Source: Alphaproteobacteria bacterium (lineage in GTDB: Bacteria; Pseudomonadota; Alphaproteobacteria; Bin95). Taken from it: 64,000 nt of DNA. Under the pieces are notes generated by a model. It was given only the letters and a program-made list of their open reading frames with translations. It was not told the DNA's origin and made no database searches. The position numbers and the translations under genes were made by a program. The DNA lies in NCBI GenBank assembly GCA_964291285.2, contig OZ219786.1, positions 1,088,001 to 1,152,000 of the forward strand, given 5' to 3'. This document shows positions 13,040-59,157 of the stretch, piece by piece (position 1 is the stretch's first letter; the number at the start of each line of letters is the position of its first letter).

Positions 13040-13483
13040 TCAGACGATAGTCCGGTCGCCGAGCCGGCGGACGGCCCCGGAGAACACGGCCACGGTCTCG
13101 CCATCCTTCTCGCGCACCTCGACCGCATACATGCCGGTGCGTCCCGCATCCGCCTGTTCCCGCGCCTCGGCCAGCAGGAGGCGGCCCGGCCGGCCCGGAC
13201 GCAGGAAGGTGATCGAGCAGAACTGCGCGACCGAGACCCGGTTGCGGCTGTTGCTCGCGAAGGCCATGGCGGAATCGGCGAGGGAGAAGATATAGCCCCC
13301 GTGACAGACCCGGTGGCCGTTCAGCATCTCCTCGGTCACCGGCATCGACATGCGCGCCCAGCCGGCGCCGACGGCCTCCAGGCGGATGCCGAGATTCCGC
13401 GACGCATCGTCCTCCGCATACATGGCGTCGGCGACGCGCCGGGCCAGTGCATCGGCAGCCCCCGTCGTCCGCCCCGCGTCCAT
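13040..13483 (-). CDS. paaI: Hotdog-fold thioesterase, PaaI-like
   Basis: MLNGHRVCHGGYIFSLADSAMAFASNS. Confidence 0.85.
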   Translation of the reverse strand: MDAGRTTGAADALARRVADAMYAEDDASRNLGIRLEAVGAGWARMSMPVTEEMLNGHRVCHGGYIFSLADSAMAFASNSRNRVSVAQFCSITFLRPGRPGRLLLAEAREQADAGRTGMYAVEVREKDGETVAVFSGAVRRLGDRTIV

Positions 13484-14685
13484 CAGTGCGCGGCCTCGAA
13501 TTCGTGGATGTAGTCCCGCGTTTCCGGCACCGCGTCCGGGTCCTTCGCAAGCTGGATCTGGAACACGGTCACGATGTTGTTGAGGAACCCGACCTCGCAT
13601 GAGGTGAGGTAGAACTCCCACATCCGGCAGAACCGTTCGTCATACATCTCCCGCGCCCGGTCCCAGTTCGAAACGAAACGGGTCCGCCACGCCCTCAGCG
13701 TCTTCGCATAGTGGCGCTTCAGAACCTCTATGTCCGTCACAAGCAGGTGCTGCTCCTCTATCGCCGGCGTCAGCTCCGAAAGCGTCGGCAGATAGCCCCC
13801 CGGGAAGATATAGCGGGTGATCCACGGGTTGACCGGACCAGGCGTGTCATAGCGGCCGATGGTGTGCACAACCGCAACGCCGTCATCCGTCAGCAGCTCC
13901 CGGAGCTTCCCGAAAAACTCCCGGTAGTGCGCCAGACCCACATGCTCCAGCATCCCCACCGAAACGATCCGCTCATAGCGGCCCGCCTCCTCCCGGTAGT
14001 CCTGGAGCCTGAAACGCACACGCTCCGACAGGCCCGCTTCCGCCGCGCGCGCATTCGACAACTCATGCTGCTCGTGGCTCAAGGTCACGCCCGTCACATC
14101 CACATCCGCCTGCTCCGCCAGGTAGAGCCCGAGCCCGCCCCAGCCCGAGCCGATGTCCAGAACACGGTCCCCCGAACGCAAAAGCAGCTTCGCCGCCAGA
14201 TGCGTCTTCTTCCGCCGCTGCGCCGTCTCGATATCGTCATTGTCCGACGCGAAATAGGCGCAGGAATACTGACGGTCGCTGTCCAGGAACAGGTCGAAAA
14301 GCTCCGGCTTCAGGTCGTAGTGGTGCGAGACCTTGCGCCGCGCCGACCCAACCGGATTGTGCGTACGAAGACGCCCCGCTGCCTTCCGCACGAAGTCCAG
14401 AAAACGCGAATCGCTCTTGAGCCTCGCGCGGCGCTGATTGACGAGGGCGATGGTGAGGAAGTCGAACAGCGTGCCGTCCTCGACCGTCAGCCGCCCGTCC
14501 ATATAGGCCTCGCCCACCGCAAGCGCCGGGTTGCGGAACATGGCGCGCGAAACCGAGGAGTCGTGCAGGCGGACAGCGGCCGACGGACCGCCCGCGCCTT
14601 CCAGCCTGTGTCTGCCCCCTTTCGGGTCGATAACGGTCAAAGTGCCGATTTCGACGAAACGGCGCAGAAACGGCAGATACAGCAT
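13483..14685 (-). CDS. cfa: Cyclopropane-fatty-acyl-phospholipid synthase family methyltransferase, copy 1
   Basis: HYDL, YSCAYF, LDIGSGWGG, IVSVGMLEHVG, YIFPGG. Confidence 0.85.
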   Translation of the reverse strand: MLYLPFLRRFVEIGTLTVIDPKGGRHRLEGAGGPSAAVRLHDSSVSRAMFRNPALAVGEAYMDGRLTVEDGTLFDFLTIALVNQRRARLKSDSRFLDFVRKAAGRLRTHNPVGSARRKVSHHYDLKPELFDLFLDSDRQYSCAYFASDNDDIETAQRRKKTHLAAKLLLRSGDRVLDIGSGWGGLGLYLAEQADVDVTGVTLSHEQHELSNARAAEAGLSERVRFRLQDYREEAGRYERIVSVGMLEHVGLAHYREFFGKLRELLTDDGVAVVHTIGRYDTPGPVNPWITRYIFPGGYLPTLSELTPAIEEQHLLVTDIEVLKRHYAKTLRAWRTRFVSNWDRAREMYDERFCRMWEFYLTSCEVGFLNNIVTVFQIQLAKDPDAVPETRDYIHEFEAAH

Positions 14686-14735
14686 GGCCGCGCCCTCCCC
14701 GGCTTTCCGGCCGCGTCACGCCTGCCGGGCGCCGG

Positions 14736-15938
14736 TCAATGCGCGGCCTCGAATTCGTGGATGTAGTCCCGCGTCTCCGGAACGGCGTCCGGGTCCTTCG
14801 CAAGCTGGATCTGGAACACGTTGAGCTCCTTCGACAGGAAGCCGACCTCGCAGGCGGTGAGGTAGAACTCCCACATCCGGCAGAACCGCTCGTCATACAT
14901 CTCCCGCGCCCGGTCCCAGTTCGAAACGAAACGGGTCCGCCACGCCCTCAGCGTCTTCGCATAGTGGCGCTTCAGAACCTCTATGTCCGTCACAAGCAGG
15001 TGTTGCTCCTCTATCGCCGGCGTCAGCTCCGAAAGCGTCGGCACATAGGTGCCGGGAAAGATGTAGCGCAATATCCACGGGTTGACCGGGCCGGGCGTGT
15101 CATAGCGGCCGATGGTGTGCACAACCGCAACGCCGTCATCCGTCAGCAGCTCCCGGAGCTTCCCGAAAAACTCCCGGTAGTGCCCCAGGCCCACATGCTC
15201 CAGCATCCCCACCGAAACGATCCGCTCATAGCGGCCCGCCTCCTCCCGGTAGTCCTGGAGCCTGAAACGCACACGCTCCGACAGGCCCGCTTCCGCCGCG
15301 CGCGCATTCGACAGCTCATGCTGCTCGTGGCTGAGCGTCACCCCCGTCACGTCCACATCCGCCTGCTCCGCCAGGTAGAGCCCGAGCCCGCCCCAGCCGG
15401 AGCCGATGTCCAGAACACGGTCCCCGGGGCGCAGCAGAAGCTTCGCCGCCAGATGCGCCTTCTTCCGCCGCTGCGCCGTCTCGATATCGTCATTGTCCGA
15501 CGCGAAATAGGCGCAACTGTATTGCCGGTCGCTGTCCAAGAACAGGTCGAACAGCTCCGGCTTCAGGTCGTAGTGGTGCGAGACCTTGCGCCGCGCCGCG
15601 CCCACCGGGTTGTGCGTGCGAAACCGGTTTACGGCCTTCCGGGCGAGGTCCGCAGGTCCCTTGGTGCGCCCGAGATGCGCCTCGCGCCGGTTCACCACCA
15701 GAATGGTCAGGAAATCGAACAGCGTGCCGTCCTCGACCGTCAGCCGCCCGTCCACATAGGCTTCGCCCACCGCAAGCGCCGGGTTGCGGACGAGTGCCCG
15801 GCTCACCGAGGAATCGTGCAGGCGGACGGTAGCCGAGGGCCCGCCCGCGCCCTCGACGCTATGCGTGCTTCCGCGCGGGTCGATTACGGTCAGCCGACCG
15901 AATTGGACGAGCCGGCGCAGAAACGGCACGAACAGCAT
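14736..15938 (-). CDS. cfa: Cyclopropane-fatty-acyl-phospholipid synthase family methyltransferase, copy 2
   Basis: Same motifs and same length (400 aa) as copy 1. Confidence 0.85.
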   Translation of the reverse strand: MLFVPFLRRLVQFGRLTVIDPRGSTHSVEGAGGPSATVRLHDSSVSRALVRNPALAVGEAYVDGRLTVEDGTLFDFLTILVVNRREAHLGRTKGPADLARKAVNRFRTHNPVGAARRKVSHHYDLKPELFDLFLDSDRQYSCAYFASDNDDIETAQRRKKAHLAAKLLLRPGDRVLDIGSGWGGLGLYLAEQADVDVTGVTLSHEQHELSNARAAEAGLSERVRFRLQDYREEAGRYERIVSVGMLEHVGLGHYREFFGKLRELLTDDGVAVVHTIGRYDTPGPVNPWILRYIFPGTYVPTLSELTPAIEEQHLLVTDIEVLKRHYAKTLRAWRTRFVSNWDRAREMYDERFCRMWEFYLTACEVGFLSKELNVFQIQLAKDPDAVPETRDYIHEFEAAH

Positions 15939-20578: not shown

Positions 20579-20729
20579 GCGGGTTTCCCCGGCCACCTTC
20601 CGGATTCGCGGATCCGCCAGGGCCGGCTTCGTGTTGCGCGGCACCCTCCCGGTGGAGTGGGCCCCTGGTCTCGGACAGTTTTGTTGTAGGAAATTGACAG
20701 GTGCGCGGTCATTGGAAGGATCGACGCCG

Positions 20730-21080
20730 ATGAGGAAGCACCGCACGCACAGCATGGCCTTCAAGCGCCAGGTCGTTGAGGAGTATCTGGCAGGCGAGAC
20801 GTTTTACGGTCTGGCCCGCCGTCATGACCTGTCTCGCACCCTGATCCGGCTGTGGCTGGAGAAGTATGAGGCCGGGGCCTTCGATGAGGAGGCCGAGGCG
20901 GCCGACAGGCTCCGGGCATATGAGGCCCGGATCGCGACGCTCGAACGGCTGGTCGGCCGGCAGGCCGCGGAGCTGGAGTTCCTAAAGGGGGCTTTGCGGC
21001 AAGGACGGCGGTCGAGGCGCGCGCCCATGTCCGTGATCGCCGGCCCCGAGGCCTCTCCGTCGCCGAAGGATGCCGACTGA
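20730..21080 (+). CDS. IS3 OrfA (HTH + leucine zipper)
   Basis: MRKHRTHSMAFKRQVV..., LERLVGRQAAELEFLK; -1 frame is open from about 20981, suggesting a frameshift at CTA-AAG-GGG. Confidence 0.85.
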   Translation: MRKHRTHSMAFKRQVVEEYLAGETFYGLARRHDLSRTLIRLWLEKYEAGAFDEEAEAADRLRAYEARIATLERLVGRQAAELEFLKGALRQGRRSRRAPMSVIAGPEASPSPKDAD

Positions 21081-21874
21081 TGGGGATCGCGCGCTCCACC
21101 TGTTACCGCGAGCCGCAGAGCCCGGTCGACGACACCGCCCTGGTCGAGGCGATGCACGAGATCAAGGACGAGTTCGAGGCCTATGGCTGGCGGCGCATGC
21201 AGGCGGAACTTCGCCACCGGGGCCGGACCGTCAACCACAAGAAGGTCAGGCGGCTGATGCGCGAACACGCCCTGCAGCCGCCGCGCAAGCGCCGCTTTGT
21301 CGCCACCACGGACAGCGGCCACGACGGGCCGGTCTTCCCGGACCGGTCCCGGGACTGCGAGGTCGAGGGCCCGAACCGGCTCTGGGTCGCCGACCTGACC
21401 TACATCGCCATCCTGGACGGCTTCGTCTATCTGGCGGCGGTCATGGACGCCTGGTCGCGCCGCATTGTCGGCTACGCGCTCGGGCAACGCATCGACGCGC
21501 GCCTGACGCTCGCGGCGCTCGACAAGGCGATCGGGAACCGAAGCCCTCAGCCCGGCTGCATCCACCACTCCGACAGGGGCTCGCAATACGCCGCCCATGC
21601 CTACCGGACCCGGCTCGACAAACACGGGATGGTCGGCTCCATGGGACGACGAGCCAACCCCTACGACAACGCCATGATGGAGAGCTTCATGAAAACCCTG
21701 AAGGTCGAGGGCGTCTATCCCATGGCCTTCGAGACCGCCGAAGACGTCGCAAGGCAACTGCCGCGCTTCATCGACAGCTACAACCACAGACGCCTGCACT
21801 CCGCGCTCGGATATCTGAGCCCAAACCGCTTCGAGGAAAAACAACATCGCAACCCTGTCAAAAATGCCGCTTGA
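21080..21874 (+). CDS. IS3 OrfB DDE transposase
   Basis: WVADLTY, HSDRGSQY, DNAMMESF. Confidence 0.92.
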   Translation: MGIARSTCYREPQSPVDDTALVEAMHEIKDEFEAYGWRRMQAELRHRGRTVNHKKVRRLMREHALQPPRKRRFVATTDSGHDGPVFPDRSRDCEVEGPNRLWVADLTYIAILDGFVYLAAVMDAWSRRIVGYALGQRIDARLTLAALDKAIGNRSPQPGCIHHSDRGSQYAAHAYRTRLDKHGMVGSMGRRANPYDNAMMESFMKTLKVEGVYPMAFETAEDVARQLPRFIDSYNHRRLHSALGYLSPNRFEEKQHRNPVKNAA

Positions 21875-21905
21875 AACTGTCCGACCCAAGGGGCCCACTC
21901 CACGG

Positions 21906-23262
21906 AAGTGTCATGGAATGTCATGTTTTGTCATGGTCGGGGGCGGAACCGGCGTTCTCCGGGCCGGTCCTCCGCTTCTTCCCCTTCTTCTTTTTCTGCT
22001 TCTTCCCCCTCGCCGCCGGTCCGCTCCAATCGTCGTCTTCGTCGCCGCTCCGCTCTTCCCGTTCGAGGCGGTCCTGCCTGCGTTCCTCGACCTCCTCCGG
22101 GGCCCAGGGGTCGTAGATGTCGTCGTAGCCGTTGCGGCGCTGGTAGAGCCAGTCATGTTCGGCGCCGTCGGCCCGGTCGTCGTCGGTGCTGTCCTCGTGG
22201 CCGGGCGTGTCGGCAGCGGCCCAGGGGCAGTATTCGTAGGTTTCCTCGGGCGGGTCGTCGGCCGGCGGCAGGTCGTTTGCCGGCGCGGGCGGGGGGCCGA
22301 AGCCGAAGGGCAGGCGGGTGCGCTCCTCGACGGCCGCGGCGAGCCTGCGGGCGGCCTCCTCATGCGCGGCCCCGTCGAAGCCCTCCTGCGCCTCCATCTC
22401 CTCGCGCCGCTCGCAGTGGCGGGCGAGCGCTCGTTCGGCCCGGTCCCGCCCCCGGCGCACGGCGTCTGCGAGCGGTCCGGGCTCGGTGCCGGTCTCCTGC
22501 GCCTCGCCCGCTTCGATCTCGCCGAACTCGTCCTCGTGCGGCAGCGGCCAGAGGCGGGCCCGGTTCGCGCCGGCCGGACTGACAAGCCCGGCGATCTCGG
22601 CCTGGAAGCGCAGCACCCGCAGCATCATGTAGGCCGAGCCGCTGGCGACGGCGGCGTCCCAGGCCTGCTCCGAGCGGGCGAGCAGGATGCGGGCCTCGTT
22701 GCGTTCGGTGCGCCGCCACGACAGGCGGATGCGGCGCACGCGCTCGACGATCCAGGGCCGCTCCAGCAGGGCGCATCCGGTCTGGCGGGCGGAGCGCTCC
22801 GAATATCCGGCCTGCCTTGCGGCGTGTGCGGCATTGCCGGAGGCGGTGTAGTGGCGGCAGAAGGCTTCCTGGCGGGTGGAAAGCGCGACGGCGGGCTCGA
22901 TGACGGGCATGGGGTGCGGGTCCTTTCGTTCCGCTGGCGTTCGACAGGCAGGCCCGGCAGCGGTACGGGACCGCGCCGGGCCGGGAGGGCGGCGTTGACG
23001 GGCAGCGCCGCCCCGTCGGGGAGCGACCCTGTTTCGCGCGTATCGCGTGCGGGCGCGGGCGGGTGTCGGCGCCGGCGCGGTTCGCGCGCCTGATTGCGCG
23101 CGCGAGCCAGAGGGCGCACTTCGCCTGTGCGTCGAATCGGGGTCGTTCCGCGCCGGGACAGCGCGAAGGGAAGCGGTCCGCGCGGACTTCGCCTCCCTCG
23201 GACCTATTCTAGCACATTTTCCTAGAATGCAAGCTCTTTTCGGGAACTATTTCAAATTTATT
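21906..23262 (-). repeat. CATGACA-terminated element, copy A (long, protein-coding)
   Basis: TGTCATGGAATGTCATGTTTTGTCATG at 21910; GACCCTGTTTCGCGCGTATCGCG and GCCGGCGCGGTTCGCGCGCCTGATTGCGC leader motifs; AT-rich box 23206-23232. Confidence 0.8.
21921..22910 (-). CDS. Protein with N-terminal terminase-small-subunit-like HTH and acidic then Lys-rich tail
   Basis: LSTRQEAFCRHY..SGNAAHAARQAGYSERSARQTGCALL..P.I matches the TerS N-terminal pattern; SD-like AAGGA upstream. Confidence 0.65.
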   Translation of the reverse strand: MPVIEPAVALSTRQEAFCRHYTASGNAAHAARQAGYSERSARQTGCALLERPWIVERVRRIRLSWRRTERNEARILLARSEQAWDAAVASGSAYMMLRVLRFQAEIAGLVSPAGANRARLWPLPHEDEFGEIEAGEAQETGTEPGPLADAVRRGRDRAERALARHCERREEMEAQEGFDGAAHEEAARRLAAAVEERTRLPFGFGPPPAPANDLPPADDPPEETYEYCPWAAADTPGHEDSTDDDRADGAEHDWLYQRRNGYDDIYDPWAPEEVEERRQDRLEREERSGDEDDDWSGPAARGKKQKKKKGKKRRTGPENAGSAPDHDKT

Positions 23263-23280: not shown

Positions 23281-24222
23281 TCATCCTGCAATGAGTAGTT
23301 GATATGGGATGGGTTGTGTTCTGACGGCGCTGTGAAGGAAGCGTGGGATCATGGAGTTGAGTTGGTATCGTCGGTTGTATCGCCATGCGAAGCTGGCGAG
23401 GTAGCGTTCGGCATGGTCGGGACCGAGCTTTCGGTAGGTTCCGGCGATGGCGCTCTTGATGTTGCCGAGGGTCGTGTTGACCCATTTGAAGGGGGCCATG
23501 CGGGCTGCCCGGCGGCCTGAGCCGGTACGGATGGCGCTGTGGCTTGCGGCGATGCCGTCGAGGGCGTTCCAGCAGTGCAGGGCATCGGTGACGACCTCCG
23601 TCCCCGGGGCCAGCCAGCGTTTGGCGCCGCGCGCGATCTCGCGCTTGCGGAAGCCCCTGACCGGGACGAGCTTGACCTTGCGCGGAGCCCCTTCGGCGCT
23701 GGTCGAGACCGCCGCCACGAAGGGCGTCTTGCCCGGCGCGCCCCGGCCGCGCTTGCCGCCGGAGCGCGACCCGCCGAGATAGGCGTCGTCCATCTCGACC
23801 CGTCCTTCGAGCCGCGTGTCGGCTTCGCGCCGGGCCATCACCGCCATGATCTTCTGCTTCATGCTCCAGGCGGTCGGCTGCCTGACCCCGAGGCGGCGAC
23901 CGAGTTCCACCGACGAAATGCCGTTCTTCGCCGTCACCACAAGGTGGATCGCCGCAAACCACAACGTCAGGGGCAGCTTGGTCGAGTGGAAGATCGTCCC
24001 CGACGTCACCGAAACCTGCTTCTTGCAGCGGTTGCACTGGTAAAGCCTGCGCCCGGCAAGAATGCAGTGCCCCCGATGCCCGCAGGAGCCGCACTCGAAA
24101 CCGTTCGGCCAGCGCAATCGGGCTAGCACCGCCCGGCACTGATCCTCCGTGCCGAACGACGCTCGGAACGCATCGTCGCTCAAGCCACGAACACGCGATG
24201 CAACCTTGAATGCCATATCCAT
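23281..24222 (-). CDS. IS1595-family transposase
   Basis: RWPNGFECxxC Zn ribbon, VEMDDAYLGG, VVTD, YLASFAWRYNRR. Confidence 0.9.
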   Translation of the reverse strand: MDMAFKVASRVRGLSDDAFRASFGTEDQCRAVLARLRWPNGFECGSCGHRGHCILAGRRLYQCNRCKKQVSVTSGTIFHSTKLPLTLWFAAIHLVVTAKNGISSVELGRRLGVRQPTAWSMKQKIMAVMARREADTRLEGRVEMDDAYLGGSRSGGKRGRGAPGKTPFVAAVSTSAEGAPRKVKLVPVRGFRKREIARGAKRWLAPGTEVVTDALHCWNALDGIAASHSAIRTGSGRRAARMAPFKWVNTTLGNIKSAIAGTYRKLGPDHAERYLASFAWRYNRRYQLNSMIPRFLHSAVRTQPIPYQLLIAG

Positions 24223-24365
24223 GACCTCCCGATAACAGAAACCCTTCCAAACCTACAATCTCACAAGATGACTCTCAAGAATAGGGGATTATAGGGCTAG
24301 CTAGCCAAAAGTGTTGACATTCGCCGGACCTTCTGTCAGATTGGCAGCGTCGATGGAGGCAGACA

Positions 24366-25315
24366 TGGCAAACTCTCCCGGAAAGTCATACCGCAAGGGC
24401 ATCAGCCTGATTGAACTGGCCGAGATGTTCCCGGATGAGGACGCGGCCAAGCGGTGGTTCGAGGAACAGCGCTGGCCGGATGGAGTGCGGTGCGCGCACT
24501 GCCAGTCCGACCGGGTTTCGGCCTGCAAGGACGCGAAGCCCATGCCCTACCGCTGCAAGGACTGCCGGAAGCATTTCAGCGTCCGCACCAAGTCGGTCAT
24601 GGCCGAGTCGCCCTTGCCGCTCCGCAAGTGGGCGTTCGCCATCTACCTTTGCGCCACGAACCTCAAGGGCGTGTCGAGCATGAAGCTCCACCGCGACCTG
24701 AAAATCGCGCAATCGTCGGCATGGTTCGTCGCGCATCGCATCCGCGAAGCACTGGACGGCGATTACGGCCTGCTTGCCGGGCCGGTGGAGGTCGATGAGA
24801 CCTACATGGGCGGCAAGCGCAAGAACATGCCGGCGCGCAAGCGCAAGGCGCTGCAAGAGGCCGGAGCGGGCCGGGGAACGGTCGGCAAGGCCATCGTCGC
24901 CGGGGCGAAGGATCGGGAGACGGGCAAGGTATCGGCCCGCGTCATTGAGGATACGACCAAGCCGACGCTGCAAGGCTTCGTCCGCGACACCGCCGCGCCG
25001 GGCGCAACGCTCTACACGGATGAGCATGGCAGCTACACCGGAATGCCGGAATACGCGCATGAAGCGGTCAATCATGGCGTCGGCGAGTATGTCCGGGAGA
25101 TGGCGCATGTGAACGGCATGGAATCTTTCTGGAGCATGTTGAAGCGGGGCTATCAGGGAACCTTCCACCACTTCTCCGCGAAGCACCTGCAACGCTATGT
25201 CAACGAGTTTGCGACCCGGCAGGGTCTCCGCCCGCACGACACGGAAGCGATGATGGGCGAGATTGCCGCCCGGATGATCGGCCGCCGCCTCACCTATGCG
25301 CGGTTGACCTCGTGA
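24366..25315 (+). CDS. IS1595-family transposase
   Basis: RWPDGVRCAHC, VEVDETYMGG, YTDE, VNH, NGMESFWS, YVNEF; probable start MANSPG near 24366. Confidence 0.9.
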
Positions 25316-37289: not shown

Positions 37290-37731
37290 AGCATGTTGTT
37301 AATTGAATCTTGGTAACAAATCCGTAAATGATTTGATTCCTGAAAATCAGATGCTACATTAGGCTGGACGGGGCGGCGTCCGGGGACCGCTTCGTGCTCC
37401 GCGGCGGCGATGCGAAAAAACCTGAGGAGCTGACAGGGCATATGCGCCCTGCGTTCGGGGTTTCGCGCACGCAGGCACAATCGGGCGCGCGATGCACGCG
37501 CCGCCGCGAAACGCGGGCGGGCACGCCCGCTCGCCCGCGCACATTACACGCAAAGTAGGGTCCCGCTGCTCGGACAAGCCGGCGGCGGAGATGGACGGAT
37601 CGAAACCGGGGCGACAGGAAGAACCTATGCCGAAGATAGAGGACCGCCGAAACCGGATGGAATACCCGCACCCCATGCCCAAACGGGCGACGGGATATGC
37701 GCCGCGCACACGCAGATCATGACATTTCCGG
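37290..37731 (+). repeat. CATGACA-terminated element, copy B (short, opposite orientation)
   Basis: TTGATT-N16-TACATT-AGG at 37333-37363; leader motifs; CCCGCACCCCATGCCC identical to copy A start; mini-ORF 37675-37722 MPKRATGYAPRTRRS; left boundary approximate. Confidence 0.7.
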
Positions 37732-48494: not shown

Positions 48495-49050
48495 AACATG
48501 TCATCAGATGTCATGTTTTGTCATGCGGGCCCGGCAGGACACCCTGCAATGTGTCATGAGATGTCATGATCTGCATGCGCACGGTGCATATCCCGTAGCC
48601 TGTTCGGGCATGAGCTCCGGCCCTCCTTCACTCTCCTTCACTTGTGAGGGAGACCCTCTCTCGATCCGGCAAGGTCTTTTCGAGCCGCACGGCCGCTGGC
48701 CCTCTCCCGGCCTCTCCTGGAGGCGGGAGAGGCGAGTTCGAGCGTCCTGCCGACTTTCTCGAAGCCGCATCCGTCAGCGCCCCGCATATTGTTCCCTCAT
48801 TCCGTTTCGTTCCACTCCGTTCCGTTCTTCCCGCCGTCCGGTTGCCGAAGCGGCAGGACCCTGATTCGCGCATATCCTGCGCGGGCGCGCCCGCGTGGCC
48901 GCCGGCGTGCGTTTCTCAGGGGTTTTTTCACGCCGGCGCGACAGGCGAAACGAAACGGCTTCGCGAATGCCGCTTCCTTCCTCCTGCTACCTATAATAAT
49001 ACAATTTTCCTTAGATCAATTCATTATGAGAAATATTACCAAAAAATCAG
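48495..49050 (-). repeat. CATGACA-terminated element, copy C
   Basis: TGTCATCAGATGTCATGTTTTGTCATG near 48500; mini-ORF 48564-48611 MPEQATGYAPCACRS with AAGGAGG; GACCCTGATTCGCGCATATC at 48857; TTGATC-N15-TATTAT-AGG at 48990-49019. Confidence 0.72.
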
Positions 49051-56914: not shown

Positions 56915-57192
56915 CGTGTCATGGAATGTCATGTTTTGTCATGTTCCGGGGGCGGAATGTCATGTTCTGTCACGGTCCGGTCTGCGCTCCGGTCGCCTGG
57001 GTTGCTTCGGATCGTTCGTTCCCGGGGCATCTCGGCCTCCTTTCCGTTGCCGGTTTCCACCGCCGGTTCGTCCCTTGCGGCGGGACCCTAGTTTCGCGCG
57101 TATCGCGCCCGCCTGTCCGCGCGCGTCGCCGCCGGCGCGGTTCGCGCGCCTGATTGCGCCCGTGCGCGCGACGCGGGCGCACAGGCGCACCT
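56915..57192 (-). repeat. CATGACA-terminated element, copy D (left part; continues at 60470)
   Basis: Same 27-nt TGTCATG triple as copy A; mini-ORF 56929-57030 (33 aa, ends HDKT) with AGGAGG; leader motifs. Confidence 0.8.
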
Positions 57193-57357
57193 TGTATCTC
57201 TCCGGATCGTTGTTGCAGCTATAGTCGCAACAGCGGGAGCGGACGGGAGACCGCTAGCCCGACTTCCGCAACTCGGCTTGAGAATCGACTGATTTGACGG
57301 TTTTCCGGCGCGAGAAGTGTCGGATTTCGGTGCAGTACCTCTCGGGACCGGCTTGTA

Positions 57358-59157
57358 GTGCCGACCTACCCCCTTGATCGGGCTGGCGAAGATCCGGACG
57401 CTGCGCTGATGTTCGTGCGCTGCAAGAGACGCTTCAAGGACGGCAAGGAGCACCGCTACTGGAGCGTTGTGGAGAACGTCCGGGTCCACGGCGGTCGGGT
57501 TGTTCAGCGTCAGGTGCTCTATCTCGGGGAGATCAACGACAGCCAGCGAGCGGCGTGGTGCCGCTCGATCGAGGTGGTGGAGGGCAAGTCGCGATCACGG
57601 CAGATGGCGCTGTTTCCCGAGGACCGGGAGGCGCCGGCGCTGACTTGCGAAGTGGTGAAGATCGACCTCTCGCAGGTGGCGCTTCACGACCCGCGCCAGT
57701 GGGGGGCGTGCTGGCTGGCGCTGTCCTTGTGGGACCGCCTGGACCTGGACCGCTTCTGGGAAGAGCGGCTGCCGGCGAGCCGGCAAGGCACGCGGTGGCT
57801 GGACATCCTGAAGATCCAGGTCTGCTACCGGCTGATCGACCCGGGCAGCGAGTGGCGCCTTCACCGTCACTGGTATGAGCACAGCGCGCTTCGCGATCTT
57901 CTGGGTGGCGAGCGGGCGATCGCCGACGACACACTCTATCGCTGTCTCGACAAGCTGCTGGCGCACAAGCAGGGCTTCTTCTCGTTTCTGCGCGACCGCT
58001 GGGCGACGCTGTTCGAGGCGCGCTTCGACGTGCTGCTCTACGACCTGACCTCGACCTACTTCGAGAGCGATCCGCCGTTCGATGACAAGCGCCGCTTCGG
58101 CTACAGCCGGGACAAGCGGCCCGACTGCGTGCAGGTGGTGATCGCCCTGATCGTTACGCCGCAGGGCTTTCCGCTGGCCTATGAGGTGATGCCGGGCAAC
58201 ACCTCCGACGACACCACGCTGGCGGCGTTCCTCAAGAAGATCGAGGATCAGTATGGCCGCTCCGAGCGGGTGTGGATCATGGACCGCGGCATCCCCACCG
58301 AGGAGACGCTGGCCGCGATGCGCGAGGGCGAGGCGCCGGTGCGCTACCTGGTGGGCACGCCCAAGGGCCGGCTGACGCGGCTCGAGAAGGTGTTCCTGGG
58401 CCTGCCCTGGCAGGAGGTGCGCCAGTCCGTGACTGTCAAGCTTCTGGTCGAGGATGGCGAGCTCTACGTCCTGGTGCGCAGCGAGGGGCGGCAGGTGAAG
58501 GAACGCGGCATGCGCCGGCGCCGGCTGAAGAGGCTGTGGCGTCGATTGGCCGAGTTGCAAGGGCAGTCGAACAGCCGGGATCAGTTGTTGCTCAAGCTCG
58601 GCGCCGCCAGGAAGGAGGCCGGCCGGGCCTGGAGCCTGGTCGACATCACCGTGCCCGGGACCGACAGCGAACTCGCCGCCAACGGCTTCTCATTCCGCCT
58701 GCAGCGCGACCGGCTGCGCCAGGTCCGCCGCCGCGAGGGCCGTTACCTGCTGCGATCCAACATGGTCGCCGAAGACCCCGCCACGCTGTGGCATCTGTAC
58801 ATGCAGCTCGTCGAGATCGAGCAGGCGTTCAAGGAACTCAAGCACGACCTCGCGATCCGCCCCATCTTCCATCAGCGCCAAGAGCGCATCGAGGCGCATA
58901 TCTTCGTCTCGTTCATCGCCTACTGCCTGCTGGTGACCCTGAAGAACCTCGCCCGGCCGCGCGCCCCGGGCCTCACCCCACGCGCCATCCTTGAGGCCTT
59001 CGCCACCATCCAGATGGTGGACGTCCATCTGCCAACCACCGACGGCCGGCACCTCGTCCTGCCGCGCCACACCCGGCCGAACAAGGAGCACGAGCTACTG
59101 CTGCAACAGCTCGGCATGACCTGGCCGCAGCAACCCGCACCCCGGATCTCCGCCTGA
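57358..59157 (+). CDS. IS1634-family DDE transposase
   Basis: Protein identical to 6748-8547. Confidence 0.9.
   Translation: MPTYPLDRAGEDPDAALMFVRCKRRFKDGKEHRYWSVVENVRVHGGRVVQRQVLYLGEINDSQRAAWCRSIEVVEGKSRSRQMALFPEDREAPALTCEVVKIDLSQVALHDPRQWGACWLALSLWDRLDLDRFWEERLPASRQGTRWLDILKIQVCYRLIDPGSEWRLHRHWYEHSALRDLLGGERAIADDTLYRCLDKLLAHKQGFFSFLRDRWATLFEARFDVLLYDLTSTYFESDPPFDDKRRFGYSRDKRPDCVQVVIALIVTPQGFPLAYEVMPGNTSDDTTLAAFLKKIEDQYGRSERVWIMDRGIPTEETLAAMREGEAPVRYLVGTPKGRLTRLEKVFLGLPWQEVRQSVTVKLLVEDGELYVLVRSEGRQVKERGMRRRRLKRLWRRLAELQGQSNSRDQLLLKLGAARKEAGRAWSLVDITVPGTDSELAANGFSFRLQRDRLRQVRRREGRYLLRSNMVAEDPATLWHLYMQLVEIEQAFKELKHDLAIRPIFHQRQERIEAHIFVSFIAYCLLVTLKNLARPRAPGLTPRAILEAFATIQMVDVHLPTTDGRHLVLPRHTRPNKEHELLLQQLGMTWPQQPAPRISA

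Follow-up and report, generated by a model that had tools for sequence, protein, structure and literature searches.

The gene at 21921..22910 (minus strand) of the window, the 64,000-nt stretch of DNA analysed here, raises the question of what a small-terminase-like gene does away from a large terminase gene (terL), and whether its protein reads the CATGACA repeats in which the gene ends. The original prediction saw an orphan small terminase (TerS) with a helix-turn-helix (HTH) domain that might recognise these repeats as iteron- or pac-like sites and so give its family a way to spread. The gene, called cargo 1 below, encodes 329 aa and is uninterrupted over 329 codons. Pfam Terminase_2 (PF03592) matches residues 11-70 (E 1.8e-11; 45.3 bits, with the curated cut-off at 26.1), PHROG families of the terminase small subunit match as well (best E 1.7e-12), and SF6/SPP1-like small terminases are the only solved structures with significant sequence similarity. 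For residues 1-130, a model from 89 sequences (pLDDT 85) has three short helices followed by a helical hairpin. Structurally it comes closest to the DNA-binding domain of SF6 G1P (2cmp; Z 9.9, rmsd 1.0, 55 residues), with the runner-up well below at 6.7; Foldseek with the same model gave nothing at E<=0.001, the four top-ranked entries being SF6 small terminases. Pfam, PHROGs and the model agree on the proposed N-terminal TerS HTH, and the fold check against Terminase_2 bore it out.

The SF6 G1P-like three-helix HTH domain spans residues 9-63 (22722..22886, minus strand; Pfam, structure matches and model) and the predicted hairpin residues 64-106 (22593..22721, minus strand; model). The hairpin stands where TerS proteins have their oligomerisation domain and probably has that role, going by the TerS domain order described in the part of PMC6854486 available to us. 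Across 10 copies from the same genome and 12 from congeners, dN/dS by segment ranges from 0.13 to 0.44 and is lowest in the HTH (0.13-0.15, against 0.19-0.44 elsewhere), so the protein is under purifying selection. As in SF6/SPP1-type small terminases, the N-terminal three-helix HTH (PF03592) is present in cargo 1; no terL lies downstream of it, and the sole terL found is on another contig.

The gene sits in a compact cassette. Three CATGACA units with a 10-bp period lie at its 3' end (21909..21935, minus strand; units at 21909, 21919 and 21929), and the TGA in the middle one serves as stop codon, so that the gene does end inside the repeats as first described. The spacing given originally, 9-10 bp, needs correction: it is exactly 10 bp here, and genome-wide successive CATGAC units are 10 bp apart 275 times, 9 bp apart twice and 11 bp apart six times. 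Upstream of the gene are a conserved GC-rich leader, detected by a leader HMM (22911..23200, minus strand; core 23070-23096), and a predicted sigma70-like promoter read from the sequence (TTGCAT, 15 nt, TAGAAT; 23206..23232, minus strand). Just upstream of the -35, an inverted repeat resembling the sites of the repressor RogA, GGAA-N4-TTCA (23243..23254), is a likely repressor site. The cassette's 5' end is abutted by an IS1595-family transposase gene that lies outside it (23281..24222, minus strand). This belongs to a segment (23281-25315) that has a divergent, back-to-back pair of IS1595-family transposases and, after them, a DNA methyltransferase-like and an HNH-like gene. Elsewhere in the window, two tandem, near-identical 400-aa genes (13483-15938) presumably resemble cyclopropane fatty acid synthases.

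Four cassette copies lie in the window, which has 16 CATGACA matches against 4.1 expected; Tandem Repeats Finder did not report the arrays. One sister copy (37290..37724, plus strand) has promoter, leader, a short remnant ORF and one CATGACA, and a decayed IS3 left end of ~100 nt starts 7 nt after it. Another (48509..49050, minus strand) is without a full cargo and carries two pairs of CATGACA units. The 5' part of the last (56917..57250, minus strand) is cut by a DDE_Tnp_1 insertion sequence. This insertion sequence (57260-59000 in the window) also interrupts several cassettes, and some genes of the second dispersed family described below, in their promoter or leader, with further cases in the same genome at C1:860272, C1:641569, C2:876180, C2:344138 and C3:1278858.

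The multi-copy family that the original prediction assumed is real, at about 100 cassettes in the genome under study (G000; 6.13 Mb, 100% complete, 4.8% contamination). The unit consists, in order, of AT-rich promoter, GC-rich leader, variable cargo and CATGACA array, and a cassette carrying cargo 1 is ~1.3 kb long with a single ORF. We counted 103 arrays, a few of which may be chance, and 108 leader HMM matches; 90 of the 103 arrays are paired with a leader and 10 leader matches have no array. An Rfam search of the leader gave no match. Cargo 1 has 8 full, 2 near-full and 8 truncated matches. Among the 85 arrays with a leader core, 18 have cargo 1 or a remnant of it, 23 have an unrelated second cargo (cargo 2) or its remnant, and 44 have neither. 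Most copies are decayed, and copies are mosaics in which promoter and leader are the constant part. A phased-repeat peptide, MT.[HNDYP]D, is found in 5 of 81 long representatives, more than in shuffles but not often enough to count as a general feature. Of the 16 congeners, 13 have triplet arrays (7 to 152 matches; 0 in the remaining ones); the 24 non-congener genomes searched have none. Public sequence sets that match the region are contigs of the organism or its close relatives, and one sponge metagenome matches at ~95% identity. Three identical loci in G000 (C2:12076, C3:1914958 and C5:11365) carry GGTGACGGTCATGACAC repeats at 24 and 45 bp spacing; these differ from the cassette arrays and are possibly iteron-like sites of another element.

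The description of the gene as an orphan holds within the window, which has neither terL nor portal gene, and fails for the genome, which has one of each, both on contig C1. They belong to a podovirus-type head cluster (C1:991700-1003900) that comprises a portal (PF12236), a probable scaffold, a capsid (PF19821), two tail proteins and a large terminase (TerL) that is open over 499 codons (phrog_38, E 1.9e-69). We had considered that the genome has no TerL; this was rejected when the intact TerL was found through a sub-threshold match in G011, PF17289, PF03237, PF04466, PF03354 and a P22-like TerL query having all missed it. The cluster is divergent from a gene for an S24-domain repressor (220 aa), which is rogA-like by architecture. 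A LexA-type GAAC-N7-GAAC box lies within the divergent promoter between the two, and inside the portal gene (L003:1261-2820) a short peptide is duplicated near residues 220-250. An insertion sequence lies between the scaffold and capsid genes of the G000 cluster.

The portal is present in all 16 congeners (partial in one) and the start of terL was detected in 13 of them; among 401 Alphaproteobacteria genomes the cluster TerL occurs in 55, almost always once per genome. Skermanella and Magnetospirillum are among the named database matches. Conserved, vertically inherited head and packaging genes are what the cluster has in common with gene transfer agents (GTAs). This conservation is the pattern of a domesticated, GTA-like unit, and the cluster, which probably makes GTA-like particles, is a candidate undescribed GTA. 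Homologues of RcGTA in Rhodospirillales are discussed by George et al. (PMC9254644, seen in part).

Cassettes and head cluster have a promoter motif in common. RogA of Caulobacter binds GGAA-N4-TTCC repeats, according to the part of PMC9632790 available. Exact GAA-N4-TTC occurs in 34 of the 85 cassette promoters against 1.4 in shuffles, and other spacings are rare (N3 twice, N5 once). When a weight matrix trained on these 34 promoters was run over 12.25 million positions, the portal promoter ranked ninth among non-cassette sites; the eight sites above it include five cassette remnants and two members of the second HTH family (by eye). The TTGCAT/TAGAAT-type layout recurs in other cassettes and before the portal gene, and box plus TTGACA precede the portal in most congeners with sequence. 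The canonical LexA box is absent as an exact match from all 85 cassette promoters, and one-mismatch forms number 12 against 1.3. The S24 gene and the spacing-specific boxes mark a putative RogA-type regulon. We infer from the motif common to portal and cassette promoters that cassettes and cluster are co-regulated, and the RogA-like repressor probably controls both.

The second cargo points to the same cluster. Cargo 2 is 49% identical (E 3e-13) to a 93-aa gene that overlaps terL in the array-free genome G013. This pre-terL gene lies directly before terL in G013, G017, G019, G021, G023 and G026 (20 terL loci examined), and a similar ORF is visible at the terL locus of G033. It is missing at 13 of the 14 terL loci of genus g1; one of these 13 (G016) is interrupted. 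G000 and 12 congeners carry cargo 2 elsewhere in the genome (1-19 matches each), and it was not found in G001, G003 and G011; in G000 the pre-terL gene survives only inside cassettes. Judged by similarity and position, the pre-terL gene has been relocated from the cluster into the cassettes. Each of the 16 cargo-2 copies examined is preceded by the promoter and leader of the family (a pattern match in 13, seen by eye in the others); 8 copies end in an array, 6 lack one, 1 has it only at a distance and 1 is cut off. The only PHROG match of cargo 2 is phrog_31793, a family of unknown function, and the ESM Atlas returned only leads under 0.9. GTA-type small terminases without an HTH are described by Sherlock et al. 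(PMC6854486, in the part available). Because of its position before terL and its lack of an HTH, cargo 2 fits this type and is probably an HTH-less GTA-type TerS, to which cargo 1 could therefore add specificity. The two cargos have no homology to each other; both have long acidic, proline-rich tails, whereas single-copy relatives have no such additions. The suggested link to packaging is thus strengthened by the resident TerL, the shared promoter motif and a second cargo derived from the head cluster.

Does cargo 1 read CATGACA? A profile search of the 401 genomes found relatives in 22. Nine of these have no terL adjoining the HTH-TerS (loci read by eye), and six of the nine carry the cluster TerL, versus none of the 13 in which TerS stands beside its own terL; among the nine, G338 has a partial match and G191 and G238 have none. 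Orphan HTH-TerS was not detected in 49 of the 55 genomes bearing the cluster TerL, and in G003 TerL is kept with neither cargo detected. Repeats beside homologs, as would suit the original idea, were seen in multi-copy families (CATGAC-type in G338, other motifs in G033 and G255) and not in single-copy relatives, where no array was seen. Thus G033 has nine copies, seven with a GGAA/GGGAA run of 10-bp period inside the gene (three pass a strict script); G255 has four, and the three examined have an AAAAGCC-type unit with an 11-bp period right after the stop codon; G338 has the same SARQTG helix as cargo 1, with CATGAC/CCTGAC units in one of two loci examined. Where the recognition helix is a different one (G033, G255), so is the phased motif, and where the helix is shared (G338) the motif is too, a covariation that comes from four families and could be shared descent. 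These independent sets of multi-copy orphan TerS genes in other bacterial families (G033: L017, L102-L111; G255: L128, L148, L153; G338: L127, L149) each have their own promoter and a phased repeat in most copies examined, and their flanks are rich in REP-like palindromes.

A second line of evidence comes from an IS3-family element that uses the arrays as targets. The copy next to cargo 1, a passenger on the array (20653..21902, plus strand), is inserted 6 nt beyond the last CATGACA and is bounded by a 3-bp target duplication (20650-20652 and 21903-21905). All nine copies in G000, eight full and a split ninth, are at arrays, and all eight full ones have 3-bp target duplications. Seven full copies lie 6 nt after a last CATGACA, in either orientation; the other full copy and the split ninth lie just before a first unit. 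Both target positions are symmetric, 7 bp from the centre of ATG-A-CAT. The halves of the split copy are at two C4 sites, each joined to other DNA. In congeners an array is at the displayed end of 9 of 17 IS3 loci, and two full G016 copies are not at arrays. The 14-mer of the IS end is found at +6 after 22 of the 103 arrays, a whole IS at only 7 of these, and elsewhere within 30 nt of arrays only once. Every solo IS end listed is the proximal one, which fits copies that take along a small amount of donor flank. Insertion at fixed array positions means that some protein reads the array. Together with the covariation of motif and helix, it indirectly favours binding of cargo 1 to the CATGACA array. 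Specific binding is weakened by the closest solved domain, that of SF6, which binds DNA without sequence preference according to the part of PMC4737164 available.

How cassettes reach new sites was read from a comparison of G000 with the congener G010 that covered 2.0 of the 5.5 Mb of G010. At 237 syntenic junctions an array is present in G010 only (9), in G000 only (11) or in both (7), and arrays of G010 lie in 26 of 156 gaps at synteny breaks versus 16 of 237 syntenic gaps. We read 15 filled/empty pairs by eye: cassettes occupy short gaps between genes, flanked on both sides by ~20-150 nt of foreign sequence, their ends are ragged, and none of the 15 has a target duplication. Nor was there an excess of shared or inverted words, as terminal inverted repeats would give, in a small sample of 12 promoter-anchored copies. 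IS insertions aside, flank common to copies reaches at most ~60 nt downstream of the array and ~100 nt upstream of the promoter block. The cassette has no integrase or transposase and, set against SaPI/PICI satellites, no att sites or replication module; no Ku was found in G000. The operator and -35 are copied along with the cassette, which argues against an RNA intermediate; G000 has 4 RT genes.

A second family is dispersed in the same genome. It consists of ~43 orphan IS630-OrfA-like genes (44 matches; for example C3:2197711-2198127 and C2:990549-990971), which have a double HTH, ~135 aa and 40-68% identity. Many have LexA-type promoters, eleven with an exact LexA box; none has an array and none stands beside a cognate DDE gene. 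Their leader motif resembles the cassette leader, and their sites are insertion-polymorphic (10 unshared vs 4 shared). Dispersal of promoter-gene cassettes here therefore needs no pac-like arrays, and the dispersal of array-less cassettes likewise argues against arrays as the signal for spread. The idea that the repeats are a way to spread is weakened on these two grounds, cargo-2 cassettes without arrays and an unrelated HTH family that also disperses; an iteron role is rejected, as we saw no Rep gene or origin features and cassettes are chromosomal insertions.

We prefer, tentatively and at somewhat less than even confidence, the reading that co-induced, sequence-specific small-terminase cassettes bias packaging towards themselves. 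The cassette would be switched on together with the phage-like head cluster, the HTH of cargo 1 would bind its own CATGACA array, and cargo 1 would recruit the resident TerL. Packaging would then likely start at cassettes, which would be over-transmitted, and new sites would come from illegitimate integration of delivered fragments with 10-130 nt of donor flank. This is favoured by the resident TerL cluster, the portal-like promoter and the captured pre-terL gene, by the cluster TerL in six of nine orphan-TerS genomes versus none of 13, and by the low dN/dS of the HTH, the limited 3' flank sharing and the IS ends at +6. It is weakened by the six of 16 cargo-2 copies without an array and the one with only a distant array, by the 49 of 55 TerL genomes without orphan HTH-TerS and G003 without either cargo, by the lack of integrase, transposase and Ku, and by the insertion sequence in the scaffold-capsid interval. 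A bolder form, which we hold to be possible and doubtful, is a minimal GTA satellite: a 1.3-kb integrase-free cassette with a copy of the GTA promoter, a specific TerS, a phased pac array and a captured GTA TerS would turn a random-packaging particle into a drive with ~100 start points, with similar families using different motifs in several alphaproteobacterial lineages.

The main rival, which we consider rather unlikely, is amplification independent of packaging: the lineage would scatter small, stress-regulated cassettes for DNA-binding genes that need only promoter and leader, with the TerS-like protein an autoregulator or chromosome-binding protein and the arrays its sites or hitchhikers. 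Cargo-2 cassettes without arrays, the parallel IS630-OrfA-like family, whose genes have no DDE gene next to them, and mosaic copies in which promoter and leader are the constant part all suit it, but it does not account for the origin of both cargos in packaging modules, the departure of the pre-terL gene or the match to the portal promoter. Conservation of the cluster across the genus, a pre-terL gene confined to cassettes in G000 and purifying selection on cargo 1 would be expected of a domesticated system in which ~100 packaging starts and a relocated terS benefit the host through genome-wide transfer by the GTA-like particle. This is unlikely, however: among the 16 congeners array-triplet counts run from 0 to 152, the two species compared have mostly different sites, and the majority of copies have decayed, all of which is typical of a selfish family. 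Distinctly unlikely is a decoy or brake, in which the proteins sequester the TerL of the cluster or of incoming podoviruses, limit lysis or infection and have a dose-selected copy number. The long acidic, proline-rich tails that single-copy relatives lack, co-induction, which would suit a brake, and the inhibition of TerL nuclease by TerS in phages (PMC6854486, part available) speak for it, yet it requires neither arrays in cis nor the gene-less copies (hundreds). Very improbable is that the IS3 transposase itself reads the arrays and moves cassettes as one-ended passengers, although nine of nine IS copies are at arrays, solo ends lie at +6 and IS3-family transposases can set target choice themselves (IS1397/ISKpn1; PMC1525189, part available), as an IS end at +6 is lacking from 81 of the 103 arrays, cassettes have ragged ends and no target duplication, and both full G016 copies examined lie away from arrays.

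If the reading of cassettes that bias packaging is true, the family would represent a previously unseen type of selfish element. Random packaging of DNA is the usual explanation for the persistence of GTAs, and theory expects cheaters that bias packaging. Our literature search, which covered few subscription journals, found no GTA packaging cheater or such element described. The family would be a natural candidate whose parts are open to experiment: the HTH of 55 residues, the 7-bp site, the TerL resident in the genome and the repressor box that cassettes and cluster share. The podovirus-type head cluster, present in 55 of 401 sampled Alphaproteobacteria, emerges as a candidate GTA whose small-terminase gene can be identified, and the question of how rings of TerS HTH domains recognise DNA can draw on the motif/helix pairs found in different families.

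Among known systems, SF6/SPP1 G1P and its pac site have the HTH fold, a hairpin after it and direct repeats overlapping the gene in common with the cassette, whereas the cassette gene has no adjacent terL, has ~200 extra acidic/proline-rich residues, has its repeats at the 3' end and exists in ~100 chromosomal copies; the SF6 HTH itself binds non-specifically. Small terminases of SaPI/PICI redirect helper-phage packaging. Like the proposed cassette, these parasites combine a TerS and a site of their own and borrow TerL in trans; in contrast, the cassette (~1.3 kb) has no integrase, origin, att sites or excision, and its helper would be a resident GTA-like cluster and not a phage. The Caulobacter RogA-GafYZ regulon and RcGTA g1 resemble the present case in the HTH/S24 repressor gene beside the cluster and GGAA-N4-TTCC-like boxes, and RcGTA g1 in an HTH-less small gene before terL, but here the cluster is podovirus-type (PF12236 portal, PF19821 capsid, phrog_38 TerL), and the boxes are at structural-gene and cassette promoters. 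MITEs and REPINs also reach ~100 intergenic copies with internally deleted derivatives and nearby synteny breaks; unlike them, the cassettes have ragged ends, no terminal inverted repeats, no target duplication and no transposase cargo, and they have their own promoter. Finally, IS1397 and ISKpn1, which insert at REP/PU sequences, are IS3-family elements specific for a host repeat, as here, whereas the target in this genome is a phased direct-repeat array with two positions symmetric about ATG-A-CAT.
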